This document shows, piece after piece, positions 1-13,165 of a stretch of DNA of 13,165 bases (position 1 is the stretch's first letter; each line of letters begins with the position of its first letter). Where the stretch lies: NCBI GenBank assembly GCA_902773475.1, contig CACYEO010000086.1:1-13165 (forward strand), read 5' to 3'. Position numbers and translations under genes: made by a program. The notes under the pieces are model-generated. The model had not been told where the DNA came from. It saw nothing but the letters and a program-made list of their open reading frames with translations, and searched no databases. Origin of the DNA: an uncultured bacterium (GTDB taxonomy: Bacteria > Verrucomicrobiota > Kiritimatiellia > RFP12 > UBA1067).

Positions 1-173
1 GCAGCCGAGCACACTGTTCGCGAAGACGCAGTGCGCGAAGCGATCGCATCCGAAGGCAATCTTCCGATTGTCGAGCGATGCGACAGCGCGAGCGCAATGC
101 GCCTTCCCGGACGGGCGCATGGTTGGGTCTGTTATGGCCGCAGTTCCCGGGCGCAGAGGAACAGAAAGGGTTT

Positions 174-310
174 GAGTGTTTGAGTTGTGAGTGTTTGAGT
201 TGGAAATGTTGCCAGTGTGGAAATGTTGCCAGTTCCAATGTTGCCGGTGTGGGGAATGGGGAATGGGGAATGGGGTTTGATTTGGTGAAAATAAAAATAA
301 ATAAAAATAA
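174..310. repeat. Intergenic cluster of short tandem repeats upstream of the operon. The units are TGAGTGTTTGAGTTG x2, (T)GGAAATGTTGCCAGT x2 plus the variant CCAATGTTGCCGGT at a 17-bp period (201-248), GAATGGGG x3 (253-276), and an A-rich AAAATAAAAATAAATAAAAATAA tract (288-310).
   Basis: The repeats were read directly from the sequence. GC content is markedly lower here than in the flanking coding DNA. None of the repeat units is in a sensible reading frame. Confidence 0.8.
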
Positions 311-323
311 TTGCATAAAACCA

Positions 324-353
324 TTGACAACAGGAATAAAGAAATAGTATCAT
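324..353 (+). promoter_or_regulatory. Putative sigma70-type promoter with a -35 TTGACA at 324-329 and a -10 candidate TAGTAT/TATCAT at 345-353, giving a spacer of 15-18 bp. It is followed by an SD-like AAGGA at 372-376 and an ATG at 383.
   Basis: There is a perfect -35 hexamer and a near-consensus -10 in the AT-rich leader immediately upstream of the first gene, with appropriate spacing to the RBS and start codon. Confidence 0.4.
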
Positions 354-382
354 ACCCGCGTCGACCAAAATAAGGACAATCA

Positions 383-712
383 ATGCCTGCTGAAAACTAC
401 ATGAGTCTGGAAGAGGTTGCCGAATTCCTCGGCGTGACCTATCAGTTGATTTACAGGCTTGTTCGCTCCGGCGAACTGCCTGCGGCGCGTCTCGGGAAAC
501 TGTACCGCGTTTCGCGCGCCGATCTCGAACGCTATCTCGAATCCAGCAAGACCCCCGCCGCAGGCGGCGTGTGCAGCGTGTGCGGCACGGTCTACAAATC
601 GTCTGGGTCCCTCGGCAACGTCTGCAAGGAAAGCGGTTGCGGCGAGCCTATATGCTTCGACTGCTGGAACCGTCTCGGCATCCGCTATTGCAAAAAGCAC
701 GCCAAGAAGTGA
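383..712 (+). CDS. DNA-binding protein with an N-terminal excisionase/MerR-superfamily helix-turn-helix and a C-terminal Cys-rich putative zinc-ribbon or zinc-binding tail.
   Basis: The N-terminal sequence is MSLEEVAEFLGVTYQLIYRLVRSGELPAARLGKLYRVSRADLERYLE. This matches the excisionase-family HTH pattern (L-x-EEAAE-LGVS-x-TVYRL-x-GELPA-R-G-x-RI-x-DLE-YL). The C-terminus reads CSVCG..CKESGCGEPICFDCW..YCKKH, with at least 8 Cys. RBS AAGGA is 6 nt upstream of the ATG. Confidence 0.8.
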   Translation: MPAENYMSLEEVAEFLGVTYQLIYRLVRSGELPAARLGKLYRVSRADLERYLESSKTPAAGGVCSVCGTVYKSSGSLGNVCKESGCGEPICFDCWNRLGIRYCKKHAKK

Positions 713-765
713 GAAGTCCGTTTTAAACGCGATTCGTCGAACGAAAAAAAGAAAGGAACGATCAA

Positions 766-2589
766 ATGGGTCTCTTCAGCGACATCTGCCCGGACTGCGG
801 CGCCAGGGTTTCAAAGCGCGCCAGATTCTGTTCAAAGTGCGGGCGCGGCGCCCCCGACGGGTGGTTCAAGTGTCCGCAGTGCGGCAAATGGGCAGGCAAC
901 GATTCCAAGTTCTGCCCGCACTGCAACCATCCGCTTTTCCCCGAAGAACGCATAGATCTCGCGGGCGGGGTCTGGGCGCGCAAGCCCGGGGAATTCGCGC
1001 GGCGTTTCGAGCTTGACGACGTCCGATTCATCAAAGAGAACGGCCTGCTTGTGCAGGAGGGGACTGTCGCCGTGTTGCTCGACGGCGGGAAAGAGGTGAA
1101 AGAACTCGGCCCAGGCCGCCACCACCCGACTGGAACGCTCCGTTCTATCAACTGGTTCGGCAATCCTCCCCCGCGTTCGGCCGTCATGGTCGACGCCGGG
1201 GAATGCATATTCAGGGTTGATTTCACCGGGAACAATTCCGGCGTGGGCGAAGTCCGGTCTGCGCCGCTGCGCACCGCCGAGGAACTGGAAGTCGGGTGCG
1301 TCGCGGAGATCACGGTGCGTTTTGTCGCCGGCAGGGCGGATAAATTCGTGGCCAACGTCATGAAAGAGTCCAGATCCGTTTCTGCGAAGGACGTATGCGC
1401 GCTTCTGTACGAGAACGCTCTTTCGGCCGTGCGCGATCTGTGTACGCAATCGAAGATCGAGGATCTGGTGAAGGATCCCGAACGCCGCGAGCGGTTCGAG
1501 GACGGAATAACCCGCGCGCTGCGCGAGAGCATGAAAGACTGGGGCCTTGAAATCGTCCGTACCGGCGCGGTCGAATTCTACGGCGCCGCATACGAGGAAA
1601 TCCGCGCCAAATACGGGGAGCTCGAAAAGTCCCGCAGACTTGTCGAATTCGGGAAAGCCCAGATCGAGGTTCTCGCCGCCGCCGCCGACCAGGAAGCGGC
1701 GGAAGGCAAGCGGAACGCGCAGCGCGACCGGGAGATGGAGGAATATCTTGCGCAGCTTGCGCAGGAGAAGGAGCTTTCCGCGCTCGAACGCGACCGGGAG
1801 CTGCAAATCGCCAGGCGCGTTTCGCAGGGCGAGATTTCCGCCGCAGAGGCCAGACTCGCGGCCGCGCGCGAACTTGAAGAACACGCGAAGGCGATGACGG
1901 CGCTGGCGCACAAGCTGGAACTCGATCTGACGCTGCGCAACTACGACAGGGAGCAGCTTGTCGCCGACGCCGACAACAAGGCGAAGCTTTCGGCCATCGC
2001 CCGCGACGAACGCCTGAAAGACGAAAAACTCGACACCTCCGTCATGGGCGAGAAGCTGAGCCAGGCGAAACTGAACGACGAAATCGAAAGAATCCGCATT
2101 TCGCGCGAGCAGTGGGAGGCGATGATATGGCTTGATGTCCGTAAAAAGAAAGACGACATCAAGAACCAGGGCATGCGCGACAGGCTCGACATGTTCTCCG
2201 GCAGGGACGCGCGGGCCGTCGCAGCCGTCATGGCGCAGGAAGGCGATCCTTCCGTATCGAGTGCGATCCTGGGGCAGGAGGCGGAAGCGGCCCGCATGGC
2301 GCACGATGAAAACATGTCCAGGATCCAGGCCGGGATGACCGCCGAGCAGATTCTTGCGACTGGCGCCGCGAAGAGCCCCGACGCGGCCAAGGAGGCGTAT
2401 GCGCGCGCGGCCGAGGCCGGAGAAAAGGCGAACGGGAAGGTGCTGGAAGAGCGGCGCGGGATGGATGCCGAAATCCGGGCCGACCGCGACAAGACCGAAG
2501 GGCGTGTAATCGGCCTTGCCGAGAAGGCGGTCGAGAAAAACACCACTGTAGTCCAGGCGCCGGCGCCGGTCACCAACATGCAGCACTGA
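766..2589 (+). CDS. SPFH (band-7/flotillin-like) domain protein with an N-terminal double zinc ribbon and a long C-terminal Glu/Ala/Arg-rich coiled-coil.
   Basis: The N-terminus has two CxxC-x10-CxxC units (CPDCG..CSKCG and CPQCG..CPHCN). Next comes an SPFH-like core (LVQEGTVAVLLDGGKEVKELGPGRHHP ... GLEIVRTGAVEFY). The remaining ~330 aa are heptad-like E/A/R/K-rich sequence typical of flotillin C-termini. RBS AAAGGAA lies upstream. Confidence 0.85.
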   Translation: MGLFSDICPDCGARVSKRARFCSKCGRGAPDGWFKCPQCGKWAGNDSKFCPHCNHPLFPEERIDLAGGVWARKPGEFARRFELDDVRFIKENGLLVQEGTVAVLLDGGKEVKELGPGRHHPTGTLRSINWFGNPPPRSAVMVDAGECIFRVDFTGNNSGVGEVRSAPLRTAEELEVGCVAEITVRFVAGRADKFVANVMKESRSVSAKDVCALLYENALSAVRDLCTQSKIEDLVKDPERRERFEDGITRALRESMKDWGLEIVRTGAVEFYGAAYEEIRAKYGELEKSRRLVEFGKAQIEVLAAAADQEAAEGKRNAQRDREMEEYLAQLAQEKELSALERDRELQIARRVSQGEISAAEARLAAARELEEHAKAMTALAHKLELDLTLRNYDREQLVADADNKAKLSAIARDERLKDEKLDTSVMGEKLSQAKLNDEIERIRISREQWEAMIWLDVRKKKDDIKNQGMRDRLDMFSGRDARAVAAVMAQEGDPSVSSAILGQEAEAARMAHDENMSRIQAGMTAEQILATGAAKSPDAAKEAYARAAEAGEKANGKVLEERRGMDAEIRADRDKTEGRVIGLAEKAVEKNTTVVQAPAPVTNMQH

Positions 2590-2606
2590 AGCGGCGCTTG
2601 CAGGAA

Positions 2607-3923
2607 ATGACAGACGGAGACCATGCAATCTGCGGAAAGTGCGGCGCCCGCAACGCGGCGGACGCCAATTTCTGCATGTCGTGCGGCGCGAGGATGGTAA
2701 GCGCGCCGCCGTCTGGCGCACCGTCCGCCGCCCCTCCCCCGCCCGCAGCCGCCGCGTTCGCGCCGGCCGCGGTTGGCGAAGGCCGTCCCTGCCCGCCGCC
2801 AGGCGATTCCGCCGTGCCGTTCGTTTTCGCCGTATGCTCGCCGGATGCGTTCTGCAAAGGGCAGGCCGGCGTGTTCGTGCTGCGCTTCCGCGCGCTCGCA
2901 GACGTGTTCGAAAGCGTGTCATTCGCCCTTGTGCACGGGCGGGACGCGGTAAGGAACGCGGCGATAGACGGCCGTCCCGGAATCTGGGAGCACGAAGTGA
3001 TAATGGATGTGCAGCCTGAAACGCCCGGGCAGACCGGATTCGTTTTCGAAGTCCGCTGCCGGCGCGACGGATACGCTGATGACGAGTGGGAGGTCTATGC
3101 ATCCGCGCCGGTCATAGTGACCGTTGACGTCGCTCCGGTGGCGCAGAATCTGAACATAGACTTGGGCGGCTTGAACGTCATTGCCGGACAGTCCGACCGC
3201 GCGGCGGATTCAAAGGCGGTCAACAACCAGGTTTTCAACATATCTTCGTCTGCCGTGTTCGACCCCAATTCCCCGCGGTACAGGAAGGGTGTGCGGGCCG
3301 GGGACTGCAGGATGCATTTGAAATCCGCGCCGCGAAGGCTCACGCTTCATTCGTCTTCTTCTTCCAGGACGCTGCTTCTTCTTTCGAAGAATGAAATATC
3401 GTTCGGGCGCAAAAACGAAGCGACCGATGTGTCGATAAGGTGTTTCGGCGACGGTGGAGAATGCGATATCCCGTTATCCAAGATGGTTTCGCGCAGGCAT
3501 TTCGCCATATCCTACGACGGCATGGAATGCCGCATTTCCGATTTGGGATCGACGAAAGGCACGGTTTTCGACGGAAGAACGGTCGCGCCCGGAATGCCGA
3601 AAAGGATCAAGCCCGATGTGCGGCATTCGCTGACGGTCGCCATAATGCCGGACTTTTCCATGGATGCATATTGCGACCGTCTGGGCATAACGACGGGACT
3701 TTCGATAGACAGGACCGACGGTGCGCGGCAGCGCGTGTTCGCCGTGTGGCGCATGGGCGTGCCGGCCGGAAACGGCGGCGGGGAATTCGGCTGGAACGGA
3801 AAGTATTTCGTGTTCAGCCGCGCCGGCGGCGGCTGCAATCCGCTGCTGCCTGGAATGTCCGTTGAAATCGACGGAGAAACCTACGATGTGCAGGTGTACA
3901 ACCAGCCGTATGGAACGGAGTGA
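2607..3923 (+). CDS. Zinc-ribbon FHA-domain protein. It has an N-terminal CxxC..CxxC zinc ribbon, a Pro/Ala-rich linker, a beta-rich middle region of unknown function, an FHA domain (approx nt 3397-3650) and a C-terminal region of unknown function. The start may instead be the TTG at 2598.
   Basis: The ribbon is CGKCGARNAADANFCMSCG. The linker is PPSGAPSAAPPPPAAAA. The FHA signature is ISFGRKNEATDVSI...VSRRHFAISYDGMECRISDLGSTKGTVFDG (G-R, S-RRH-A-I, DLGSTNGT pattern). Confidence 0.85.
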   Translation: MTDGDHAICGKCGARNAADANFCMSCGARMVSAPPSGAPSAAPPPPAAAAFAPAAVGEGRPCPPPGDSAVPFVFAVCSPDAFCKGQAGVFVLRFRALADVFESVSFALVHGRDAVRNAAIDGRPGIWEHEVIMDVQPETPGQTGFVFEVRCRRDGYADDEWEVYASAPVIVTVDVAPVAQNLNIDLGGLNVIAGQSDRAADSKAVNNQVFNISSSAVFDPNSPRYRKGVRAGDCRMHLKSAPRRLTLHSSSSSRTLLLLSKNEISFGRKNEATDVSIRCFGDGGECDIPLSKMVSRRHFAISYDGMECRISDLGSTKGTVFDGRTVAPGMPKRIKPDVRHSLTVAIMPDFSMDAYCDRLGITTGLSIDRTDGARQRVFAVWRMGVPAGNGGGEFGWNGKYFVFSRAGGGCNPLLPGMSVEIDGETYDVQVYNQPYGTE

Positions 3924-3945
3924 AAAAACGAAAAGGAGAAACCGG

Positions 3946-4398
3946 ATGAAAATCACGAAAAAACTGGCGGCGGCATTCGTCCTTGCCGCGATCGCGGGAT
4001 GCACGACATGTCCCGTTTACAAAGTGAACGCAACGGCTGCGACGCCGGGAGCGGAAAACCTCGCGCGCGGGATAGCTTTCGACGTGAACGGCGGGCTGCT
4101 TGCAAAGGGGTATCCGATGCTCGCGCCGGGCGCCAGACTGAAATCCGGCCAGCGGCTCGTTGCGATCGACCTTGAGGTGGAACGGCGCGAAACGGCGTCG
4201 CTGGGCGACTGGCGCACTTACGAAGGCGTCGTGAGGGCGAGCGTGACCGACGGCGGCAAGCCCGCCGGAGCCGCCGAGTTCCGCGCCGGAGGGGAACGCG
4301 CCGACAACGAAACGGACGCCGAGCGCGGAGTGCGCGAGGCTCTTGCAAAGAGAGTCGGCGAATGGGTGGGCGGAGTGTCCGTCCCGGAAACCAAATGA
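3946..4398 (+). CDS. Small lipoprotein of about 150 aa with a signal peptide and a lipobox.
   Basis: The N-terminus is MKITKKLAAAFVLAAIAGC, with an n-region, an h-region and the lipobox IAG|C. A strong RBS AAAAGGAGAA lies 7 nt upstream. The six-frame ORF starting at 3721 is an upstream extension that overlaps the preceding gene. Confidence 0.75.
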   Translation: MKITKKLAAAFVLAAIAGCTTCPVYKVNATAATPGAENLARGIAFDVNGGLLAKGYPMLAPGARLKSGQRLVAIDLEVERRETASLGDWRTYEGVVRASVTDGGKPAGAAEFRAGGERADNETDAERGVREALAKRVGEWVGGVSVPETK

Positions 4399-4437
4399 CG
4401 ATTGCAGTCAAATGACATCCATAAAGGAGAAAACGCG

Positions 4438-5676
4438 ATGAAATTCCTTGCAGTATTCGCAATGGCCGCTGCCGCCGCAGGCGCTGCTTTCGCCGATTGC
4501 GGCAAATTCAACGATTTGGAAAAAGAGGCCGTGCGCAAGGCCGCCGCGGAAATCGCGGCGTCCCTGCGCAAGTCGGACAAGTGCTCCGGGCGCGCGGTGA
4601 CGCTGCTGCCCGTCAACGGCGACAAAGACGGATATGCGGAGCGTCTGCTCACCGGCGCGCTTGTCAATTCCGGCATGACGGTCGTTATGCCGAACGATGA
4701 AAACGACGTCCGTTTCAAGAGAATCCTCGCCAGCATCAAATGGGACGGCCGCCAGGTGAAACTTGGATCGGTGGATACGTCGACCGTGGACGAACTCGGA
4801 AGGCTCCGTTCCACGCAGGTGTTCATCGAGGCGGTTCTCGACATCAAGAGCGAAGAAAAATCCGCCAAGGCCGATTTGCACGTTCTTTCGTACGTGGTGG
4901 CCACAAAGTCGTATCTCGACGCCGCGAACGGGGTGGGCAATGCCGAGGCTCCGGCTGAGCCCCCTCCCCCGCCGCCGCGGAAAGCATGGACCGAAACCGC
5001 GGTGCAGAACGAGATCGTTCCGCTGCGCGTGAAGGTGGACACCCGCGCGAAAGACGCGGAATCGGAAGGCGTGGCCCGCCGGCTTGATACGGCGGTGCGG
5101 GGCGCGCTCGCGAAGCTCGGCTTCAGGCTCGCCGGAGAGGACTGCGACGCGAAAACCGTCGCGCTCGACGACGTCACCGTCACGCTCGACGTAGGGCGCT
5201 CCGTGTTCGACAAAGCCGGAGAATACGAAATCCATGAAGCCAAAGTTGACTTGTCCGCCGTAAAAAAAGCCGGCGCCGGAACCCTGCTCGTCGGAACGGC
5301 GGTGTTCGACGAACGCGGGGACCGCAAGCTCGGCAGCTTCGCGGCAGACAGGAGTCTCGCGGAGAAACTCGAAGGGCCGGCGGTGGAATGGCTCAAGAAG
5401 AACATCGTGCAGAACACCGTGAAGACGGCCGCCGTGCAGTTTGAAGTCCGCCTTGCAAAGCCGATTGCCGTCGCGGGCGACATGTCCGTCGTGGAAAAAT
5501 TCATGCAGCCTTTCGCGCTGCTCGGCGGCGTGCGGCTGTACAGGCTCGACGCGCGCGACGACGAAGCCGGCATGCTTCGGTTCTTCGTCGTGTACGAAAC
5601 GGAAAAATTCCCGGGTGGTCTGGTGCCGGCGTATTTCGCGTCCGCTCCCGAGCTTGGAGAACTGCTTGACAAGTGA
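4438..5676 (+). CDS. Secreted or periplasmic protein with a signal peptide and two repeated domains of unknown function. It is a paralogue of the next gene.
   Basis: The N-terminus is MKFLAVFAMAAAAAGAAFA|DCG, preceded by RBS AAAGGAG. The motif VTLLPVNGDKDGY...W (a CsgG/LpoB/TolB-N-like first-strand pattern) is present. There is an internal PAEPPPPPPRK linker. It aligns clearly with 5718..6812 (VTLLPVNGDKDGYAERL...FKRILASIKWD..LGRLRSTQVFIEAVL versus VAVLPVAGDRDRYIAGRL...FGEILKEIAWD..FGRLQAAQVLLTATV). Confidence 0.8.
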   Translation: MKFLAVFAMAAAAAGAAFADCGKFNDLEKEAVRKAAAEIAASLRKSDKCSGRAVTLLPVNGDKDGYAERLLTGALVNSGMTVVMPNDENDVRFKRILASIKWDGRQVKLGSVDTSTVDELGRLRSTQVFIEAVLDIKSEEKSAKADLHVLSYVVATKSYLDAANGVGNAEAPAEPPPPPPRKAWTETAVQNEIVPLRVKVDTRAKDAESEGVARRLDTAVRGALAKLGFRLAGEDCDAKTVALDDVTVTLDVGRSVFDKAGEYEIHEAKVDLSAVKKAGAGTLLVGTAVFDERGDRKLGSFAADRSLAEKLEGPAVEWLKKNIVQNTVKTAAVQFEVRLAKPIAVAGDMSVVEKFMQPFALLGGVRLYRLDARDDEAGMLRFFVVYETEKFPGGLVPAYFASAPELGELLDK

Positions 5677-5717
5677 AACCGCGGCGTTCGCGGATACAAA
5701 TGAAAGGATTGCAAAAA

Positions 5718-6812
5718 ATGAAAAAGACGATTTTGGCTTTGGTTCTGCCGTTGCTCTCCGCCGCAGCTTTGGCTTCCGGCGGGAGCGAAGATCTCATGCG
5801 CCAGACGGTTGATGCGGCGTTCAAGGACGTGCAGGACGCGATTGCGGCGTCTCCGGTTCCCGCCGGCGCGACCGTGGCCGTCCTGCCCGTGGCGGGCGAC
5901 CGCGACCGCTACATCGCGGGACGGCTCAAAAACGCCGTGACCGCGGGCGGGCGCAAGTGCGTAGAAGACAAGGACGATCCGGTTTTCGGTGAAATCCTCA
6001 AGGAAATAGCCTGGGACGAACGCAAAGAAGACATACTCGACCCGGCCACGGTGCAGAAATTCGGCAGGCTCCAGGCCGCGCAGGTTCTGCTGACCGCTAC
6101 CGTGCGCACCTTGGAATCGAACGAGCGATATTCGTTTTTCGAGTTCGAGCTGCACGCCACGGAAATCGCCACCAAACGGCATCTTTGGGGCGACGTGTTC
6201 GAAAAGCATCTCTACATGCCCGGGCTCGAGGACGCGGCCGGCGAGTCGGGAATCCCCGCGCCTCTTCGCGATGCGCTGGCGTCGGAAATGCGCGCGAAAA
6301 TCGAAGCGTCATTGAAAAAATCCGGGAAACTTTCGAACATCGGCAAAGTCGCATACCTCCCCCTTGCGGGCGACTCGAAGGGATACGTATTTTCGATAGT
6401 GCGCGATGCGGTTTCGTCCACGTCCATGTCGCTCGTCAATCTCGACGTCGCGACCCGCGGAGAAGCCCGCATGCGCCTGCGCGACAGGCGCGTCGCGGCG
6501 GATGCGCTTCTGAGCGGATCGGTGCGCGAGCTGTCCGGGAGCGTGGTCGAGGATTCGCCCGCCGGAAAGCGCTTCCGCTACCGCGCCGAGGTGCAGCTGT
6601 GCATCGAAGGGACCGACGGCGCCGCACTCTGGAGCGATACGATATCCATCGACGTCGAACGGGAAGAGGAACTCGGCATCTGGGGCAGACTGTGCAAACT
6701 GTTTCCGTCCCTTGCAAGCAAGCCGTGGCTTGCGGTCGTCGTTCCGGTCTGTCTGGTCCTGGGCGTCTTTGTTTTCATATCCGTCTTGCGCGGCATGACG
6801 CGCGTGAGGTGA
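5718..6812 (+). CDS. Secreted paralogue of the previous gene. It has a signal peptide, two VxxLPhxGDxxxY-type domains and a C-terminal transmembrane anchor.
   Basis: The N-terminus is MKKTILALVLPLLSAAALA with RBS AAAGGA. It has the motifs VAVLPVAGDRDRY and VAYLPLAGDSKGY. The C-terminus KPWLAVVVPVCLVLGVFVFISVL is hydrophobic. An alternative in-frame ATG at 5700 lacks an SD. Confidence 0.8.
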   Translation: MKKTILALVLPLLSAAALASGGSEDLMRQTVDAAFKDVQDAIAASPVPAGATVAVLPVAGDRDRYIAGRLKNAVTAGGRKCVEDKDDPVFGEILKEIAWDERKEDILDPATVQKFGRLQAAQVLLTATVRTLESNERYSFFEFELHATEIATKRHLWGDVFEKHLYMPGLEDAAGESGIPAPLRDALASEMRAKIEASLKKSGKLSNIGKVAYLPLAGDSKGYVFSIVRDAVSSTSMSLVNLDVATRGEARMRLRDRRVAADALLSGSVRELSGSVVEDSPAGKRFRYRAEVQLCIEGTDGAALWSDTISIDVEREEELGIWGRLCKLFPSLASKPWLAVVVPVCLVLGVFVFISVLRGMTRVR

Positions 6813-6816
6813 GACG

Positions 6817-7701
6817 GTGGATGTGAAAACCGAAACATGCTGCGTCTGCGGGCGGGAACTTCCGAACCGCTACGCCGTGGCCGGCCGCTGCGATGCGGAC
6901 GGCTGCGGCGCGCCGTTCTGTTCGCTCCACTGGCACGACGGCAACGGGAAGTGCCCTGCGCACGGACGGGAAGAGAAAAAAGAATCCGGCAATCGAGGAG
7001 GAGAGGGAATGTCCGAACATGAAACGATAGAAGGCGAAACCGCCGCATCCGCAGTCCCCGCCGCGCCGCCGCCGCAGGCGGAGCCGCGTACGACCGGGAA
7101 AACAGTCGCCGCGGCCGCGCTGAAAGGCTCCGTCTCCATAGGCAGAAGCGCAGTCGCGTATTTCAAGAAACTGTGCGGAATACGCGATCCCAAGGCCGCG
7201 CTCGCGGAGGCGGAAGCGTCCCTCGCCGCGGTAAGAGAGCGCAGAGAGCCGCTTTCGGCGCGGTACGAAGAGCTTTATTCGAAGATTGCCGCCAAAAAGA
7301 AACTCCGCGACGGCGCTTCTCCCGCAAGGCGCAAAATGCTGGACATGGAGCTTCGCACGCTTCTTGCGGAATACAAGAGCATAGAGCGCGAGGTGTCCGC
7401 GCTGTACAGGAAAGAAGAAATGGTCGTCACGGTCAGAGGCCGCATGAACGAACTGGTCGTACAGGGCCTGCCGATGCCGCGCGTCGAAGACGTCGACCGC
7501 CTTGCAGACGACATTTCCGACGCCCTCGACACGGATGAAGACCTTGCCGATGCCGTGGGCGAGCTGGACAAGATCGGCGCGGGACGCGAGCGCCATGCGC
7601 CGAATCTGGACGAGGAACTCGCGGAATTCGAGGAATCGGCGCCGGAGGGCGAAACCGCGCGGCTCAGGCCGGAAAACCCCGCCGCCACTGTCGGGGAATG
7701 A
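6817..7701 (+). CDS. Zinc-ribbon protein with a Snf7/ESCRT-III-like (or PspA-superfamily) helical domain. The helical half is basic at its N-terminal end and strongly acidic at its C-terminal tail.
   Basis: A GTG start overlaps the upstream stop (GTGAGGTGAgacgGTG), with a GAGGTG SD. The N-terminus is CCVCG..CDADGCGAPFCSLHWHDGNGKCPAHG. The central segment has KKLRDG..RRKMLDMELRTLLAEYKSIEREVSALYRKEEMVVTVRGRMNELVVQ followed by VEDVDRLADDISDALDTDEDLADAVGELD. This resembles yeast Snf7 ...NMDIDKVDELMQDIADQQELAEEIS. The acidic tail is LDEELAEFEESAPE. The ESCRT-III assignment is inferred from sequence similarity and charge asymmetry, without profile search. Confidence 0.7.
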   Translation: MDVKTETCCVCGRELPNRYAVAGRCDADGCGAPFCSLHWHDGNGKCPAHGREEKKESGNRGGEGMSEHETIEGETAASAVPAAPPPQAEPRTTGKTVAAAALKGSVSIGRSAVAYFKKLCGIRDPKAALAEAEASLAAVRERREPLSARYEELYSKIAAKKKLRDGASPARRKMLDMELRTLLAEYKSIEREVSALYRKEEMVVTVRGRMNELVVQGLPMPRVEDVDRLADDISDALDTDEDLADAVGELDKIGAGRERHAPNLDEELAEFEESAPEGETARLRPENPAATVGE

Positions 7702-7719
7702 CGATCCGGAGGTGACCGA

Positions 7720-9111
7720 ATGGCGTTGTTCATGAGCGAAGCCGAAAGAAGGCGCGATGCGCGGCGGCGCCGCCGCCGCGCTTTGCGCGAAGTCCGCAAC
7801 GCCGTGGATGCGGCGAGGTTGAAGCGCGATGAAATATGCAAGCGCCGCGCGGATGAATGGAAGGCCGCGCGGGCTGCGCTTTCCGCCGGAGACGAGGCCG
7901 ACGCGCGGCGGCGGCTCGAGTCGGTCAGGACTGACGATGCCGCGCTGAAGCGCCTCGACGCCCGGCTGGCCCGGTTCGAGGCGCTTGAACGCGAAATGGA
8001 ATGCGCCGACGCCGATGCGGCGTTCGACGAGGCGTCGGCGTCTCTTTCTCGCTTCGTAAAGGCTCCGGAGGAGGCCGGGGAGGCCGAATCCGCGCCGCCG
8101 CCCTCCGTGGACGAACTGCTTGAACTTCTCGCCAGAGAACCTGAAACCGAAAAAACCGAAGGAACGGCCGGCCGTCCGAAACCGCCGCCGGCGGCATCGT
8201 CTCTGAAGGTGGACGGCGATGCAGACGCGTCGTCGAAATGGGTCGCGACAAAGCCGTCCGCCGTGCGCCTTGAAGACGTTGTCGGTCTTGACGATGCCAA
8301 GACGGCCGTGATGGACGCGCTCGTCAATCCCGTGAACCATCCCGACATATACAAAACGCTCAAGGTCGCGCCCGGAACAGGGCTTCTCCTCTACGGCCCG
8401 CCGGGAACAGGCAAGACGCTTTTCGCGAAAGCCGTCGCCAACGAAATGGGGCTGCCGTTCCTCGACGTCCGCTGCGACAGACTGAAAAGCAAATACGTAG
8501 GCGAGACCGAAAAGAACGTGGCCGAAATGTTCCGCGCCGCCCGAGCGCTCGGCAGATGCGTGCTGTTTCTTGACGAATGCAACGCGATTCTTTCCCGCCG
8601 CGGAGACCAGAAGGTCTGCATGGTGGAGCAGTTTCTTGTGGAGCTTGACGGGTTCTCGACGTCCGACGCGCAATTGTTCGTCTTGATGGCCACGAACCTT
8701 CCCTGGACGCTCGATCCCGCAATCACGCGCAGCGGCCGCCTGAGCGAAGCCGTTTACGTAGGACTGCCTGACGAGGCCGCGCGGCGCAGGCTGATTGCAA
8801 ACGCGTTCAAGGACGCACCTCTGGCGGCGGATGTGGATCTCGACTCTCTCGCCGCCCGCACGGAGGGGTTCAGCGGCGCCGATCTGGCGGCCAAGGGCGG
8901 ACTTTGCCACAAGGCCAAGACGTACGCGGCCCGCCGCTGGGTGGAGCGCCGTACCGGCGCGCCGGCGAAAGACGGCCCGGCGTGGGACGCGGTCGAGCGG
9001 GTGACGGCTGCGGATGTCGAAAAGGCGCTTGCGGGAACCGTTCCGGTCGCCAGTTCGGCGGCGGATATCGTGCAGCGCAACAGGGAATTTTCTCTCAAGA
9101 AAGAGGTGTAG
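7720..9111 (+). CDS. AAA+ ATPase of the Vps4/katanin ('meiotic') clade with an N-terminal Arg-rich helical domain that may be MIT-like.
   Basis: RBS GGAGGTGA lies upstream. The Walker A region is [48 protein letters not shown] (compare Vps4 [26 protein letters not shown]...[22 protein letters not shown]). Walker B is [11 protein letters not shown]. The SRR/arginine-finger region is ILSRRGD...FLVELDGF. The clade-typical sequence is [20 protein letters not shown] (Vps4 GATNIPWVLDSAIRRRF). Confidence 0.9.
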   Translation: [463 protein letters not shown]

Positions 9112-9114
9112 CGC

Positions 9115-9690
9115 ATGGCCTGGAAACTTGACGACAGCAGCGTCGGCCGCGAATTGAAGACCGGCGCCGGACCGAGCAAGAGGGAAAGATCTCTTCCTGC
9201 GGACGTCGCTTACGACGTGCAGCGCGTGCTGTACAGAAAATGGATCATCGCCGCGATAGAGTATCTGCTGAAGTTCGCCTTCTTCGCCGGACTGCTGTGG
9301 CTGGCGTGGCGCGGCGTGAAGTCGCTGCTTCCGGAAGACACCCCGGCTCCGCAGGCCCCGGCCGCCGTCCAGGCGGTTCCCGATGCACCGGCCGCGCAGG
9401 CGGCCGCCATAGGCGCGCCCGCAGTGCTCGGCCTCGCCCTGGCGGTGCTGCTCCTCCCCGTGATGACGATATCGTTCATAAGGACGATGGTTGCAAAGCG
9501 GTCGAACAGAGTGAACGCGTTCACTTTGGGCGTGTATACCGCGATAGACATGATCCTGGCGTATTTCATGGTAGGCGCGTCGCTTGAAACCGCCGTCTCC
9601 GCCGTGCTTTTCACCGGGGCGTCGTTGCTTTCGCTGATATACAACATGACTGTGATGAACTATGCCGTGAAACTCGAAGACGGAAAGTGA
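9115..9690 (+). CDS. Small integral membrane protein with 3-4 predicted TM helices and unknown function.
   Basis: RBS AGAGGTG lies upstream. The hydrophobic segments are IIAAIEYLLKFAFFAGLLWLAW, VLGLALAVLLLPVMTISFI, FTLGVYTAIDMILAYFMVGA and AVLFTGASLLSLIYNMTVM. Confidence 0.7.
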   Translation: MAWKLDDSSVGRELKTGAGPSKRERSLPADVAYDVQRVLYRKWIIAAIEYLLKFAFFAGLLWLAWRGVKSLLPEDTPAPQAPAAVQAVPDAPAAQAAAIGAPAVLGLALAVLLLPVMTISFIRTMVAKRSNRVNAFTLGVYTAIDMILAYFMVGASLETAVSAVLFTGASLLSLIYNMTVMNYAVKLEDGK

Positions 9691-9701
9691 AAGGCTGGCA
9701 A

Positions 9702-10667
9702 ATGGGCAGGCTTGACGAGATAGAAGCGCGCATCGACGCGCGCATGGCGGATATCGACAACCGCATTGACGCGATAGTCGGCGGGAACGGAACCGTGCCT
9801 CCAAAGGCAGGCTCCGCGGATACGCACAGGGGCTTCGCTCCGTTTGCGGAATCGCAACAGCCGGGAACCGCGCCTGGGATCCGCGGAATCGGGACGGCGG
9901 GCCGCGGGTCCGCGAGGCGCGTCGGACTGTGCGTGGGTTTGAACACCGTAGATTCTTCGGCATATCCAGGATACACCGTTCCGCCGCTTTCGGGCTGCAT
10001 CGCAGATGTGGAACGTCTCATGTGCGTGTTGAACAGGCTTGAATTCGAGGCCGCGAAACTTGTGGACGGACAGGCGACATGCGCCAATCTCTACAATGCC
10101 GTCAAAAAACTGACTGCCGTGTTGGAACCCGGAGATCTGTTCGTGCTGCACGTGTCCGGACACGGCGGACGGGTGAACGGCACGGGCGAGAACTGGTGTC
10201 TGTACGACGGGCTGGCGTGGGATTCCGACATCGTCTGGCTGTTTTCGCGCTTCCGTCCCGGCGTCCGCGTTCTTGTCATAAACGACCAATGCCATTCCGG
10301 CGGCATCTTCCAGTCCCGGAAGGCCGATGCGCCGTCTCCGTTCGGCGAACTGTGCAGGGCCGACGGACGCCCGGCGGACTGGGACGCCGGCGCCGCCGTG
10401 GCCGGGAAGGATTTCCCGATGCTCATCCAATTCGCCGGATGCCGCGCCGAGCAGACCAGCATCGACGGACTCGCCGGGGGAACCTGGACCCAGGCGCTTG
10501 TCAATGCGCTTGACGCCGCCGTTTCGCAGAATGCATATCTTACTTACAGGCAGTGGTTCGACTGCGCGTTTGCAAGCCCTGCGCTCCAGCGCGGGCGGCA
10601 GGATCCGCAGTGGGTGGAGAGTGCGGGCGTGACGGATGAATTCCGCGGTTGCGCGGCGCTTTTCTGA
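9702..10667 (+). CDS. Caspase-like cysteine peptidase (C14, metacaspase/orthocaspase-like) with a short N-terminal coiled-coil. An alternative GTG start at 9687 overlaps the upstream stop.
   Basis: The sequence runs VGLCVGLNTVDSSAYPGYTVPPLSGCIADVERL...LVDGQATCANLYNAVKKL...GDLFVLHVSGHGG (catalytic His in SGHG, nt ~10161)...GVRVLVINDQCHSGG (catalytic Cys in D-x-CHSG, nt 10290-10292). This is the metacaspase-type D[AS]CHSG signature. Confidence 0.85.
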   Translation: MGRLDEIEARIDARMADIDNRIDAIVGGNGTVPPKAGSADTHRGFAPFAESQQPGTAPGIRGIGTAGRGSARRVGLCVGLNTVDSSAYPGYTVPPLSGCIADVERLMCVLNRLEFEAAKLVDGQATCANLYNAVKKLTAVLEPGDLFVLHVSGHGGRVNGTGENWCLYDGLAWDSDIVWLFSRFRPGVRVLVINDQCHSGGIFQSRKADAPSPFGELCRADGRPADWDAGAAVAGKDFPMLIQFAGCRAEQTSIDGLAGGTWTQALVNALDAAVSQNAYLTYRQWFDCAFASPALQRGRQDPQWVESAGVTDEFRGCAALF

Positions 10668-10683
10668 CAGCGGGGGCATTGCG

Positions 10684-11997
10684 ATGAAACATGTTTTCGA
10701 CAGCAGGGATTTTTTGGCGTCCGCCAATACTGAGCGGCGCGCCGACGGAATGCGGCCGGACGTCAGAGACGCTCCGGCACAGGACGGAAAGGTTCCACAG
10801 TGGATGACCGCATCGCTTGCAAGAACCGTGATCGTCACGCTTGCGATAGGAGCGATGCTGTATTTCGTCTTTCAAAACGAGTTCCTTTCCCGTCTGGGCA
10901 ATTGCGTGCTTGCGGCGTTGTTCGTGCCTCTTTTGAGCGAACTCGTCGCCGGGCTTCTGCGCAGGAAAAACGTGCAGCGCGTTTCGGGCGTGCGCGCGAT
11001 TGCGGCATGCGACAGGAAATACGTGAAATTCGCCTGCTTTGCGCATCTGCTTCTCGCAGCCGTCCTTGCGGCATTCATCGCGATAGGATTCTGGAACGGA
11101 AGGAGCAAGTCCGGGGCGGACGTGGCGAAAGTCTCTGACGGACAGCCTGCCGGGGCCCCGGCGGAAACAGCGCCTGAACCTGAAGCGCCCTGTTCCGGCA
11201 GACTTGCAAAAGCCGGCGCCGCGAAAGTCTCGCCCGGGCAGATAAAGGCGTATTTGACGCCTTCAGACGCCGAGGTGGAACAATTGTACCAAATGGTCGT
11301 CGCGGCTCCGTTCGTCGCCGAGAACCTGCAGTATCGCGACCGCCTTGCGAACATTCCGTTCGTGTATATCGCCACGAACGATGTTGTCAATGCCTCTTCG
11401 CTTCGAAATGTCGTGGAGAAGAACGGAGAAAAGTCGCTCGTGTTCCATACGGTGCTCTTCGGCGGCGCGGCGCGGTACGCCCGGCTCGTCGGCCTCGCGG
11501 CCGCTCTGCAGGACTCCGGACGCGGGGACATGCTCAAAAAGTTCGTGGCCGCGATGCCTAAGCGCTTCTGCGGCGTCTGCGACGAAGAGTCCTGCGAAAA
11601 ATTCATAACGGACAACGGATTGGACGAAGCACTCGCAGACGAGAAAATCCGGCTGCGCGCCGTGTCCTATTCCTCCGGCACGATAATAAGCATTCTCGCG
11701 CACGAGTGCGGACATCACGCCCTCGGGCATCTGCTGGGCTTTCCCCGGAAAGAGAATCTGTCCATCGACCGGAACCAGGAGCGGGAGGCTGACTCTTTTG
11801 CGTCGTCCGTCATCAGTGCAAGTCCGTTCGGAGAGTTCATATTCGCGGGAACCCTGTTTTGGCACTATGCAGTCGCCATGCAGTCGGAGGACGGCCGGTC
11901 TGCGGCTGGCGACCATCCGCATTCCAGAGAGCGTTTTGAGAATTTCGTGAAATCCAACCGGGAAAAAGCGGCGGCGATGGGAATAACGCTGGAATGA
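10684..11997 (+). CDS. Membrane-anchored zinc metalloprotease, M48/M56-like (HExxH...ExxAD). A longer in-frame start at 10636 would overlap the caspase gene.
   Basis: N-terminal TM helices are ARTVIVTLAIGAMLYFVF, CVLAALFVPLLSELVAGLL and FAHLLLAAVLAAFIAIGFW. The zinc-binding site is ISILAHECGHHALGHLLG (nt ~11701-11730), and the downstream QEREADSFA resembles the third zinc-ligand Glu motif of M48 peptidases. Confidence 0.8.
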   Translation: MKHVFDSRDFLASANTERRADGMRPDVRDAPAQDGKVPQWMTASLARTVIVTLAIGAMLYFVFQNEFLSRLGNCVLAALFVPLLSELVAGLLRRKNVQRVSGVRAIAACDRKYVKFACFAHLLLAAVLAAFIAIGFWNGRSKSGADVAKVSDGQPAGAPAETAPEPEAPCSGRLAKAGAAKVSPGQIKAYLTPSDAEVEQLYQMVVAAPFVAENLQYRDRLANIPFVYIATNDVVNASSLRNVVEKNGEKSLVFHTVLFGGAARYARLVGLAAALQDSGRGDMLKKFVAAMPKRFCGVCDEESCEKFITDNGLDEALADEKIRLRAVSYSSGTIISILAHECGHHALGHLLGFPRKENLSIDRNQEREADSFASSVISASPFGEFIFAGTLFWHYAVAMQSEDGRSAAGDHPHSRERFENFVKSNREKAAAMGITLE

Positions 11998-13165
11998 CTG
12001 ACGAAACATTGAGCGATGCTGTGACGCTTGACGGCGGGAATGACCGGATTCTCGCCGGGCGCTATCGCATATTGAAACAGCTCGGCGCAGGCGGCATGGG
12101 GTCGGTCTGGCTCGCAGAGGACATGCAGTTAGACAACAAGCTTTTCGCAATAAAGATGCTGCCGCAGGTTGTCGCTTCCGACAAGGAAGCCGCCAACTCG
12201 GTCAAGCGCGAAGCGAAAGTCGCGATGAAGCTTTCGCATTCCAATATCGTCGTTTTGCGCGATTATGTCGAAAACGGCGGCAATCCTTTTTTGCTGATGG
12301 ATTATGTCGAGGGCATGCCCCTGTCATCCTGTCTTGCGGATTGGGGACGGCTTTCTCCCGAAGAAACAATCGCTCTTCGCGCTCCTGTCGCCGCCGCCAT
12401 AGACTATGCGCACACGCAAGGCGTGATACACCGGGACATAAAACCCGGCAATATAATCGTCCGCGCAAAAGACGTCACGCCGTTCGTGCTGGATTTCGGC
12501 ATCGCGCGCGATGTGCATGAAAGCATGTCGCGAATGACCGGCAAACAGCCGTCGGGCACATTGATGTACATGTCGCCGGAGCAGATCAACGGCGAACTCC
12601 CCGCAAAGGCGCACGACATATATTCGTTCGCCGCCACGGTGTACCAGTGCCTTGCCGGAAAACCGCCTTTCAGCAGGGGCGACATAACCCACCAGATTCT
12701 CGACAACCCTCCCCCGCCGTTGCCTCCGGGATGCTCTGGCAGGCTTGGCGCGGCGGTAATGGCCGGTCTGGATAAAAATCCGGCTAAACGGCCTTTGTCG
12801 TGTACTAATCTGCTGCGGGGAATAATTCCGGACGGCAAAAAACCGCGGCGCTTGCTAAACAACATGCTGCCGCGCCCTTCCAAAAAAAGGATATTGCCGT
12901 TTTTTATCACGGGCGTTCTTGTTTCATTGATTGCCGGCGGTGTATATTACGGTTTGTCTAAACAATGGAAAACCAGTGATGGAAATGCCGTTCCAAAGCA
13001 CGGCGACACGAAGACAATCACTCTTCCAGACAGAGCGACGACGGAAATGGTATACGTCGAGCCAAAGCACGGCGACACGAAGACAATCACTCTCCCCGGC
13101 GGAGCGACGATGGAACTGATATATGTCGCGCCCGGCTCTTTCACGATGGGAAGCCCTTCTTTCGA
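11994..13165 (+). CDS. Hanks-type Ser/Thr protein kinase with a TM segment and an extracytoplasmic FGE-sulfatase/SUMF1-like domain. It is 3'-truncated by the window edge.
   Basis: I translated this myself, because it has no stop in the window and is therefore missing from the ORF track. The ATG overlaps the upstream TGA (ATGA). Kinase motifs are LGAGGMGSVW (G-loop), FAIKML (VAIK), VIHRDIKPGN (catalytic loop, nt ~12428), LDFGIA (DFG) and YMSPE (APE). The TM segment is ILPFFITGVLVSLIAGGVYYGL. The start of the FGE-type domain is MELIYVAPGSFTMGSP. Confidence 0.9.
   Translation, partial: MTDETLSDAVTLDGGNDRILAGRYRILKQLGAGGMGSVWLAEDMQLDNKLFAIKMLPQVVASDKEAANSVKREAKVAMKLSHSNIVVLRDYVENGGNPFLLMDYVEGMPLSSCLADWGRLSPEETIALRAPVAAAIDYAHTQGVIHRDIKPGNIIVRAKDVTPFVLDFGIARDVHESMSRMTGKQPSGTLMYMSPEQINGELPAKAHDIYSFAATVYQCLAGKPPFSRGDITHQILDNPPPPLPPGCSGRLGAAVMAGLDKNPAKRPLSCTNLLRGIIPDGKKPRRLLNNMLPRPSKKRILPFFITGVLVSLIAGGVYYGLSKQWKTSDGNAVPKHGDTKTITLPDRATTEMVYVEPKHGDTKTITLPGGATMELIYVAPGSFTMGSPSF
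12993..13130 (+). repeat. In-frame tandem duplication of a 69-bp (23-codon) unit inside the kinase gene.
   Basis: CCAAAGCACGGCGACACGAAGACAATCACTCT occurs at 12993 and again, identically, at 13062. The remainder of the two copies is diverged (PKHGDTKTITLPDRATTEMVYVE versus PKHGDTKTITLPGGATMELIYVA). Confidence 0.85.

Follow-up and report, generated by a model that had tools for sequence, protein, structure and literature searches.

An anchorless SPFH protein with an N-terminal double zinc ribbon, encoded in a conserved gene cluster with Snf7-like and CdvC/Vps4-like proteins in uncultured Kiritimatiellia and related bacteria

Introduction

Explanations of SPFH proteins usually rest on their membrane anchors, and the pairing of Snf7 with Vps4 is usually treated as archaeal and eukaryotic. 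A stretch of 13,165 nucleotides from an uncultured bacterium (Verrucomicrobiota; Kiritimatiellia; RFP12; UBA1067; assembly GCA_902773475.1, contig CACYEO010000086.1, positions 1-13,165; hereafter, the window) raises a question about both of these views: what might an SPFH protein without an anchor do, and with which partners? The protein, encoded near the start of the window (Table 1), had been described from the sequence alone as a flotillin-like protein with two zinc ribbons in place of the usual anchor, possibly recruited to the membrane by a four-transmembrane (4-TM) protein or by a secreted paralogue with a transmembrane (TM) segment, both encoded further downstream (the original prediction). 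Here, we establish its domain architecture, its lack of an anchor and its SPFH fold, the persistence of this architecture throughout its family, and the conservation of its gene neighbourhood, in which genes for Snf7-like and CdvC/Vps4-like proteins recur. We propose that the protein may serve as a peripheral platform for an ESCRT-III/Vps4-like module at the inner membrane, under kinase/FHA control.

Results

Domain architecture of the SPFH protein

The SPFH gene is real because at least 369 homologues of its product exist, mostly full-length and 46-100% identical (one of them named from a Kiritimatiellae genome), and because no other gene of the window has a better codon-usage score. The cysteines at positions 8, 11, 22, 25 and 36, 39, 50, 53 make up two CxxC-x10-CxxC units, which are almost invariant across 40 relatives and are predicted metal sites. 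Residues 8-54 belong to the double zinc ribbon family according to the Pfam DZR model (PF12773; 31.6 bits against a cut-off of 27.3), and Zn_Ribbon_1 also matched the N terminus (Pfam, E 6e-10). The net charge over residues 1-58 is +5. As anticipated, the central region belongs to the SPFH/Band_7 family: PF01145 matched residues 96-266 with E 2.8e-11 and 44.2 bits (cut-off, 23.6). At E <=0.01, the protein gave no match to any further SPFH-type model of Pfam. The last 317 residues (291-607) consist of 18% Ala, 12% Glu and 9.5% Arg. The 607-residue open reading frame with two ribbons, an SPFH core and a long A/E/R-rich helical region was thereby confirmed by Pfam, composition and AlphaFold2. A sequence search of the Protein Data Bank (PDB) with the protein returned nothing useful, and neither PADLOC nor NCBIfam assigned it to a family.

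We used a mean Kyte-Doolittle hydropathy of 1.6 over a 19-residue window as the threshold for a TM segment. No segment of the 607-residue protein reached it, the best mean being 0.89, in agreement with the claim that the protein has no obvious hydrophobic segment. An N-terminal amphipathic helix is not visible either, because the AlphaFold2 model has no helix in residues 1-85. Neither a cryptic TM segment nor an amphipathic anchor was thus found at the N terminus.

Three short blocks stand out by their conservation, although each is coil or poorly resolved in the monomer model. Residues 61-70 of the linker (ERIDLAGGVW) are the joint most conserved ten-residue block of the protein (4.06 bits), yet residues 59-69 were modelled with a predicted local distance difference test score (pLDDT) below 50. 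The NWFGNPPPR loop is a candidate contact site for the membrane or for another subunit, as judged from the sequence. The third block is the C-terminal tail, of which APVTNMQH forms the C-terminal end in 61 of about 120 close relatives; the carboxy-terminal pattern N-(M/I)-(Q/V)-(H/K) is kept also among distant relatives. The TTVV segment of the tail has a Thr with Val at the +3 position, which is compatible with an FHA-binding phosphothreonine motif. The FHA protein or the ATPase described below could dock onto the tail, and possible functions of all three blocks are contact with the membrane, contact between subunits or the docking of partners.

Predicted structure and fold matches

An AlphaFold2 monomer model of the SPFH protein was built from a 40-sequence alignment. 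It starts with the double ribbon, modelled as four short β-hairpins, followed by the low-confidence linker (59-69), an α/β SPFH domain (76-272), helices spanning residues 274-590, the longest of which has 119 residues, and the low-confidence tail. Foldseek searches against the PDB produced 58 matches at E <=0.001. Those listed were all SPFH cage assemblies at 13-21% identity, namely flotillin (the best, E 7.7e-9), prohibitin, erlin, HflK/C, stomatin, QmcA and major vault protein, with E values of up to 1e-4. The model and the fold matches together identify an SPFH fold followed by long helices, and in the model the helical region 274-590 is equivalent to the wall-forming helices of SPFH cages. 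The solved SPFH relatives all form rings or cages. The low confidence of the conserved segments 59-69 and 591-607 in a monomer model would be compatible with contacts between subunits.

A small subfamily of anchorless zinc-ribbon SPFH proteins

The SPFH core (residues 60-300) was used as a query against a set of 1.84 billion representative proteins. Only 271 clusters matched at E <=0.001, and only 32 at E <=1e-30; the subfamily is small and far from mainstream Band_7 proteins. Among the 149 best representatives of the 271 clusters, 112 have at least one zinc ribbon within the first 140 residues and 45 have a C-terminal zinc ribbon; a strong hydrophobic segment was found in a single one, and there it is not N-terminal. 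The SPFH homologues of 30 genomes likewise have no TM segment by 19-residue hydropathy beyond one borderline match at a β-strand. A net positive charge of the zinc-ribbon region, about +4 per 50 residues, is found in 100% of the close and 93% of the distant relatives, and the remainder of the protein is acidic (net charges of -5 for the SPFH domain and -11 for the helical region). The N-terminal MGLFSDxC sequence is kept down to relatives of 25-30% identity.

The conserved gene neighbourhood

A genome scan with one genome per species yielded 30 loci, all of them in metagenome-assembled genomes labelled Kiritimatiellae/Kiritimatiellia, Lentisphaerae/Victivallales, Verrucomicrobia/Verrucomicrobiota or unclassified uncultured bacteria; the named sources are mainly rumen or gut. 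The clusters were mapped by tblastn with the window proteins and by codon-model gene calls with clustering, and the components were counted in the 22 loci whose downstream sequence extends over 8 kb or more (Table 1). Five minimal clusters (L021, L023, L024, L026 and L028) keep the helix-turn-helix (HTH), SPFH, FHA, Snf7-like, AAA and kinase genes but have no exported paralogues. Most of the conserved neighbours are cytoplasmic (HTH, FHA, Snf7-family, AAA and helical-hairpin proteins), the TM Ser/Thr kinases being the only conserved membrane proteins.

These counts do not favour the two proposed membrane recruiters. The 4-TM protein was found in none of the 30 related loci and was rejected as a conserved partner, and the secreted TM paralogue is present in 9 of the 22 informative loci and missing from the minimal clusters. 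Taken as a whole, the original prediction was right about the domain order and the missing anchor, but its flotillin label was too specific, its suggested partners are not conserved, and the Snf7/Vps4-like module was missed.

The neighbourhood extends beyond close relatives. Distant SPFH relatives (about 29% identity) retain AAA/Vps4_C, HTH_17, kinase and FHA neighbours, and a 29%-identity relative from an unrelated metagenome is surrounded by genes for kinases, for one HTH_17 and one LpoB-like protein and for two AAA ATPases. At another distant locus (L035: 378-1451, 3380-5035), the SPFH relative is flanked by prokaryotic JAB/MPN-type, thioredoxin-FHA-FHA and zinc-ribbon kinase proteins; JAB domains are part of ubiquitin-like deconjugation systems.

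A Snf7-like protein and a CdvC/Vps4-like ATPase

Most related loci encode a separate Snf7-family protein of 193-212 residues together with a CdvC-like ATPase of 365-390 residues. The 193-residue protein of one minimal cluster (L024:13003-13581) matched Pfam Snf7 with 29.4 bits against a cut-off of 27.3 (E 7.6e-7), its best PDB sequence match is yeast Snf7, and it carries the NCBI name 'Snf7 family protein'. PF03357 is precomputed for nearly all of the 120 relatives listed, and the 120 listed clusters of the family are at least 90% identical to one another. Over the same 12 loci, the mean identity was 66% for the HTH protein, 60% for the Snf7-like protein, 57% for the AAA ATPase, 45% for the SPFH protein and 42% for the helical-hairpin protein. 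By such sequence comparison, the Snf7-family protein is much more conserved than the SPFH protein.

In the window itself, the Snf7-like part is fused to the ATPase. In its first ~120 residues, the window ATPase aligns with helices 1-3 of Snf7-like proteins and contains a short conserved PSxxEL motif, and an MIT-like N-domain is missing. Residues 1-113 and 3-145 match the ~200-residue proteins of L022 and L024, respectively (tblastn, E 2e-8 and 2e-6). The same fusion is found in locus L006 (79% identity). The ATPases of related loci have a single classical AAA domain. One of them (L016) gave an end-to-end alignment with the CdvC model (its residues 9-365 against model positions 12-366, E 1.4e-57), and CdvC is the top NCBIfam family for the ATPase of another locus, L031. 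Vps4_C, an oligomerisation helix, was detected in the same L031 ATPase (23.1 bits against a cut-off of 21.3) and weakly in those of L010 and L016, and the best single-domain PDB match of a related-locus ATPase is Vps4B. A Pfam MIT match was not found in the AAA ATPases. The conserved bacterial cluster of Snf7, CdvC-like, SPFH and FHA/kinase genes, as seen from gene order and profile matches, is a more notable result than the SPFH protein itself.

Other genes and features of the window

Genes were called with a codon-usage model followed by clustering across loci. The window (G+C content of 55-65%) contains twelve closely packed genes on the forward strand behind a single strong promoter-like site (Table 1). 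Two antisense open reading frames, 832-3102 (-; 756 residues) and 6775-9963 (-; 1062 residues), overlap real genes, failed the codon-usage test and were rejected as by-products of the high G+C content. No tRNA or Rfam element was found in the window. Just upstream of the promoter-like site, short tandem repeats occupy positions 170-310 of the forward strand (GTTTGAGT four times, a 17-nucleotide unit 3.2 times and TGGGGAA 3.7 times), which could be candidate operator sites for the HTH protein.

Table 1. Features of the window, with the number of related loci that have the corresponding component
Feature	Position	Strand	Basis or remark	Loci (of 22)
Promoter-like site TTGACA-18-TATCAT	324-353	+	11/12 consensus matches; ahead of first gene of 12-gene cluster; consensus match only	
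HTH_17 (excisionase-type) DNA-binding protein with C-terminal Cys-rich domain	383-712	+	Pfam HTH_17, E 2.6e-17; count: directly upstream of SPFH gene	18
Zinc ribbon-zinc ribbon-SPFH-long helical region-conserved tail protein	766-2589	+	ATG start; 607 residues; anchorless	
Double zinc ribbon, residues 8-25 and 36-53	787-924	+	Pfam DZR and cysteine spacing	
Linker, residues 59-75, PEERIDLAGGVWARKPGEF	940-990	+	Conservation and AlphaFold2	
SPFH/Band_7 domain, residues 76-272	991-1581	+	Pfam, AlphaFold2 model, Foldseek	
Near-invariant loop NWFGNPPPR, residues 129-137	1150-1176	+	Insertion after GPGRHHP, a turn in the first SPFH subdomain	
A/E/R-rich helical region, residues 274-590	1585-2535	+	Composition, AlphaFold2, Foldseek	
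Conserved C-terminal tail TTVVxAPAPVTNMQH, residues 591-607	2536-2586	+	Low-confidence in model	
Zinc-ribbon and FHA (phosphothreonine-binding) protein	2607-3923	+	FHA, E 4.3e-8, and Zn_Ribbon_1, E 5.7e-7 (Pfam); after SPFH gene in most loci	12 (23 of 30 by clustering)
Lipoprotein, first of three exported paralogues	3946-4398	+	Signal prediction; weak LpoB-like match	5-11 (exported paralogues)
Secreted protein, second exported paralogue	4438-5676	+	Signal prediction; weak LpoB-like match	5-11 (exported paralogues)
Secreted protein with C-terminal TM segment, third exported paralogue	5715-6812	+	Weak LpoB-like match; 7-residue basic tail	5-11 (exported paralogues)
Protein with Cys-rich Zn domain, long helical hairpin and acidic tail	6817-7701	+	AlphaFold2, pLDDT 80	18
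~200-residue Snf7-like protein				18
Classical AAA ATPase with Snf7-like N-terminal fusion	7720-9111	+	Pfam AAA, E 1.7e-36; count: AAA ATPase	15
Protein with 3-4 predicted TM segments (4-TM protein)	9115-9690	+	Three segments pass the 1.6 threshold	0
Caspase-like protease (Peptidase_C14)	9687-10667	+	Pfam, E 1.1e-13; variable component	3
Membrane HExxH metallopeptidase, M48/U49 (Lit)-like	10684-11997	+	HECGHHALGH and EREAD motifs; weak M48 match	12
Ser/Thr kinase with TM segment and start of periplasmic domain	11994-13165	+	Pfam Pkinase, E 5.8e-42; runs off the window end	15

The HTH_17 protein is likely a regulator. Since its C terminus and the N terminus of the helical-hairpin protein have one Cys-rich pattern in common (CxxCG-x11-12-C-x4-GC-x3-C-x2-(C/H)W-x5-6-C-x2-H), the regulator and the structural protein appear to carry the same small metal-binding module. 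The AlphaFold2 model of the helical-hairpin protein shows a confidently modelled Zn domain and then a helical hairpin of 90 residues, one more helix and, at the C terminus, a short conserved helix; in this model, the arrangement amounts to an ESCRT-III-like plan. Zinc ribbons also recur on the SPFH protein, the FHA protein and, in one relative, the kinase, which suggests that small metal-binding modules may help to bring the components of the cluster together.

The three exported proteins fall into one cluster and are thus paralogues; they occur in about half of the related clusters. The start of the HExxH peptidase is most likely at 10684 (MKHVFDS, as in its homologues) and not at the upstream ATG at 10636, and relatives of this peptidase (L036:20193-21224; L037:7873-8826) have precomputed Peptidase_U49 and M48 matches. 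Peptidase_U49 is the family of the phage-exclusion protease Lit. Relatives of the kinase have FGE-sulfatase-type periplasmic domains. The kinase gene contains a 69-nucleotide tandem duplication at 12993-13132 (two copies, 87% match), encoding a repeated PKHGDTKTITLP... past the TM helix.

Discussion

Proposed role and alternative explanations

The proposal of a peripheral SPFH platform was made because four observations point in the same direction: the SPFH fold, the family-wide loss of the anchor, the basic ribbons at the anchor site and the conserved ESCRT-III/ATPase neighbourhood. We give it about an even chance of being correct. Oligomerisation of the protein, its association with the membrane, the part played by the zinc ribbons and a functional link with the Snf7/AAA proteins are all inferred. 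The SPFH domains and long helices would assemble side by side into a ring or cup, like those of the solved relatives, and this assembly would sit peripherally on the cytoplasmic face of the inner membrane. Contact could be made by the basic double zinc ribbon, located where a TM anchor usually is, together with conserved aromatic loops, either with acidic lipids directly or with partner proteins. The ring would then be a platform for the Snf7/ESCRT-III-family polymer former, for the CdvC/Vps4-like AAA ATPase that would remodel the polymer, and for the helical-hairpin protein as a second, zinc-domain component. The membrane Ser/Thr kinases and the zinc-ribbon FHA reader may provide phospho-dependent control of the module, and the HTH protein may regulate transcription of the cluster. 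The broader claim, that Kiritimatiellia and related bacteria from the Planctomycetes-Verrucomicrobia-Chlamydiae (PVC) group possess a complete, lineage-wide ESCRT-like membrane-remodelling machine composed of a Snf7 polymer, a CdvC/Vps4-like disassembly ATPase, an anchorless SPFH ring platform and kinase/FHA control, is tentative, and we rate its chances somewhat below even.

Several observations weigh against the platform proposal. Gene order is the sole link between the SPFH protein and the Snf7-like and AAA proteins. The AlphaFold2 model of the SPFH protein is of modest confidence (mean pLDDT of 71.5 and a predicted template modelling score, pTM, of 0.40), with a pLDDT of 83-91 in the SPFH core (residues 170-300). 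The window ATPase has no Pfam Snf7 match for its truncated fused segment and no Vps4_C match. The AAA ATPases scored 187-197 bits against a cut-off of 650 for the CdvC equivalog (NCBIfam), and CDC48 scored slightly above CdvC in two of the three ATPases tested; because of these scores, 'CdvC/Vps4-like' is best read as describing architecture and resemblance, not orthology. For the helical-hairpin protein, the Snf7 matches are sub-threshold but collinear, the fold searches were non-specific and hhalign against ESCRT-III was negative, so the protein could not be placed in ESCRT-III. Moreover, the variable proteases (caspase, M48/U49 and M4) would fit a role in proteolysis or conflict at least as well.

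HflK/C cages the AAA protease FtsH, and stomatin pairs with NfeD proteases. By analogy, the SPFH protein might enclose or restrain the AAA ATPase with the HExxH peptidase and/or the caspase, thereby controlling membrane proteolysis. The HflK/C-FtsH and QmcA-YbbJ complexes are indeed among the fold matches, the AAA ATPase of the cluster has a strong similarity to the FtsH family (E 9.3e-49), and proteases are well represented, with a TM HExxH peptidase in 12 of the 22 loci, the caspase, and an M4 peptidase in one relative. We nevertheless regard such a protease-gating cage as rather unlikely: the HExxH peptidase reaches no more than those 12 loci and the caspase three, both are absent from the minimal clusters that keep the SPFH, Snf7-like and AAA proteins, and the ATPase has no peptidase domain, its relatives showing a CdvC-like layout with a Snf7-family neighbour. 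The same proteases could instead be effectors of a conflict or defence system of the abortive-infection type, triggered by kinase/FHA sensing, while the membrane is remodelled or disrupted and the SPFH protein acts as a scaffold. Caspases and Lit-type (U49) peptidases are known defence effectors, accessory gene content differs between loci, and some helical-hairpin proteins have weak matches to an effector-associated domain (EAD9). The first gene resembles the MADS HTH protein (mad1, E 2.4e-10, PADLOC; NF047737), and the ATPase matches models of the anti-phage ATPase IetA/IteA; both matches are, however, explained by generic HTH and AAA similarity, and PADLOC gave no match for the SPFH, FHA, helical-hairpin or exported proteins. 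The strong conservation of the Snf7-like protein (at least 90% identity across the 120 listed clusters) and the wide spread of the core genes in the lineage would be unusual for defence genes, and the window has no flanking mobile-element genes. We therefore consider a defence system quite unlikely.

The SPFH and helical wall might also close into a free, vault-like cytoplasmic cage with no membrane role, as would be consistent with the lack of any detectable anchor and with the significant fold matches to major vault protein (E 3.4e-6). This seems highly improbable, as the other proteins of the cluster include membrane and envelope proteins (TM kinases, exported paralogues and the TM peptidase), Snf7-family proteins act on membranes, and the charge polarity of the zinc ribbons, together with the precedent of YdjI discussed below, favours a peripheral membrane location.

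Comparison with known systems

Flotillins (FloT/FloA; human flotillin-1/2, PDB 9bq2) have an SPFH domain with long Ala/Glu-rich helices in common with the window protein and gave the top fold match, with 464 aligned columns. However, the window protein lacks their hairpin or TM anchor, the identity is 14-16%, and neither Pfam Flot nor the NCBIfam flotillin models matched it at E <=0.01. As SPFH families match about equally, 'flotillin-like' holds in the broad SPFH sense but not for flotillin proper. HflK/C-FtsH and QmcA-YbbJ of E. coli also share the fold of SPFH and helical wall (E 6.5e-8 to 6.9e-6) and the genetic link to an AAA ATPase and a metallopeptidase. The E. coli proteins carry TM helices at the N terminus and lie on the periplasmic side, whereas the window protein is predicted to be cytoplasmic and is anchorless, and its ATPase and peptidase are separate proteins.

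The likeness to ESCRT-III/Vps4 (CdvB/CdvC) lies in the related loci, where a Pfam-level Snf7 protein is encoded next to an AAA ATPase that aligns over its full length with CdvC and has a Vps4_C-type helix. The differences are the bacterial hosts, the CdvC scores far below the cut-off, the lack of a Pfam MIT match, and the truncation and fusion of the Snf7-like part in the window. Ravi et al. described Vps4-like ATPases that were transferred to bacteria while another gene took the place of snf7, as well as Snf7 homologues that occur occasionally in bacteria (PMC11237479). According to a 2025 review, a Vps4-like ATPase 'appears absent in bacteria' (PMC7619361), and a 2024 survey of ESCRT places its components in archaea 'but not in bacteria' (PMC10936438). 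The searchable literature gave us no account of such a cluster for PVC bacteria. If the complete machine considered above existed, it would contradict the current statement that bacteria lack a Vps4-type regulation of ESCRT-III and would mirror the archaeal ESCRT variants with SPFH, FHA and kinase proteins.

The closest working analogy is the YdjI/SamI-PspA system of B. subtilis. YdjI/SamI, a soluble SPFH protein that carries a zinc finger, depends on YdjG/YdjH to get to the membrane and is required for PspA to localise focally (PMC8581546; bioRxiv 10.64898/2026.02.06.704340). The window shares with the pspA-ydjGHI/samGHI operon an anchorless SPFH protein with zinc fingers that is encoded with a protein of the ESCRT-III superfamily. 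The zinc finger is, however, C-terminal in YdjI, in contrast to the two N-terminal ribbons here, and the partner here is of the Snf7 family and not PspA, joined by a CdvC/Vps4-like ATPase, an FHA protein and kinases. No match to PspA_IM30 or to YdjG-like or YdjH-like (TPM) proteins was found among the window proteins, so the resemblance to YdjI, which was compared by description, is one of architecture and not of orthology or operon. A second precedent is the archaeal 'Meth_adaptin' SPFH protein of ESCRT loci (WP_013898576.1, Methanosalsum zhilinae; Makarova et al. 2024), in which an SPFH domain, a coiled coil and a zinc ribbon are encoded next to Vps4/ESCRT-III genes (PMC10936438). Related archaeal loci also have FHA proteins and Ser/Thr kinases. 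Compared by description, the archaeal protein differs in its host and in its order of SPFH (1-212), coiled coil and zinc ribbon, and the adaptin-like and GOLD-domain proteins of its loci are absent here.

Anchorless zinc-ribbon SPFH proteins tied to ESCRT-III-superfamily genes were thus already known in Firmicutes (YdjI) and in methanogen ESCRT loci. What appears to be new here is the N-terminal double ribbon, the occurrence in PVC bacteria and the separate sequence subfamily. A subfamily in which basic zinc ribbons replace the anchor suggests that SPFH rings can be recruited peripherally, and it would be a clean system for studying what positions such rings. The accessory themes of archaeal ESCRT variants, SPFH with a zinc ribbon, FHA and kinases, recur beside the Snf7/CdvC-like genes of gut PVC bacteria. 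If the genes of the cluster work together, the regulation of ESCRT-III polymers in bacteria would become testable in a defined operon, and the link between SPFH and ESCRT-III proteins seen in YdjI-PspA and in methanogens would be a general and ancient design.

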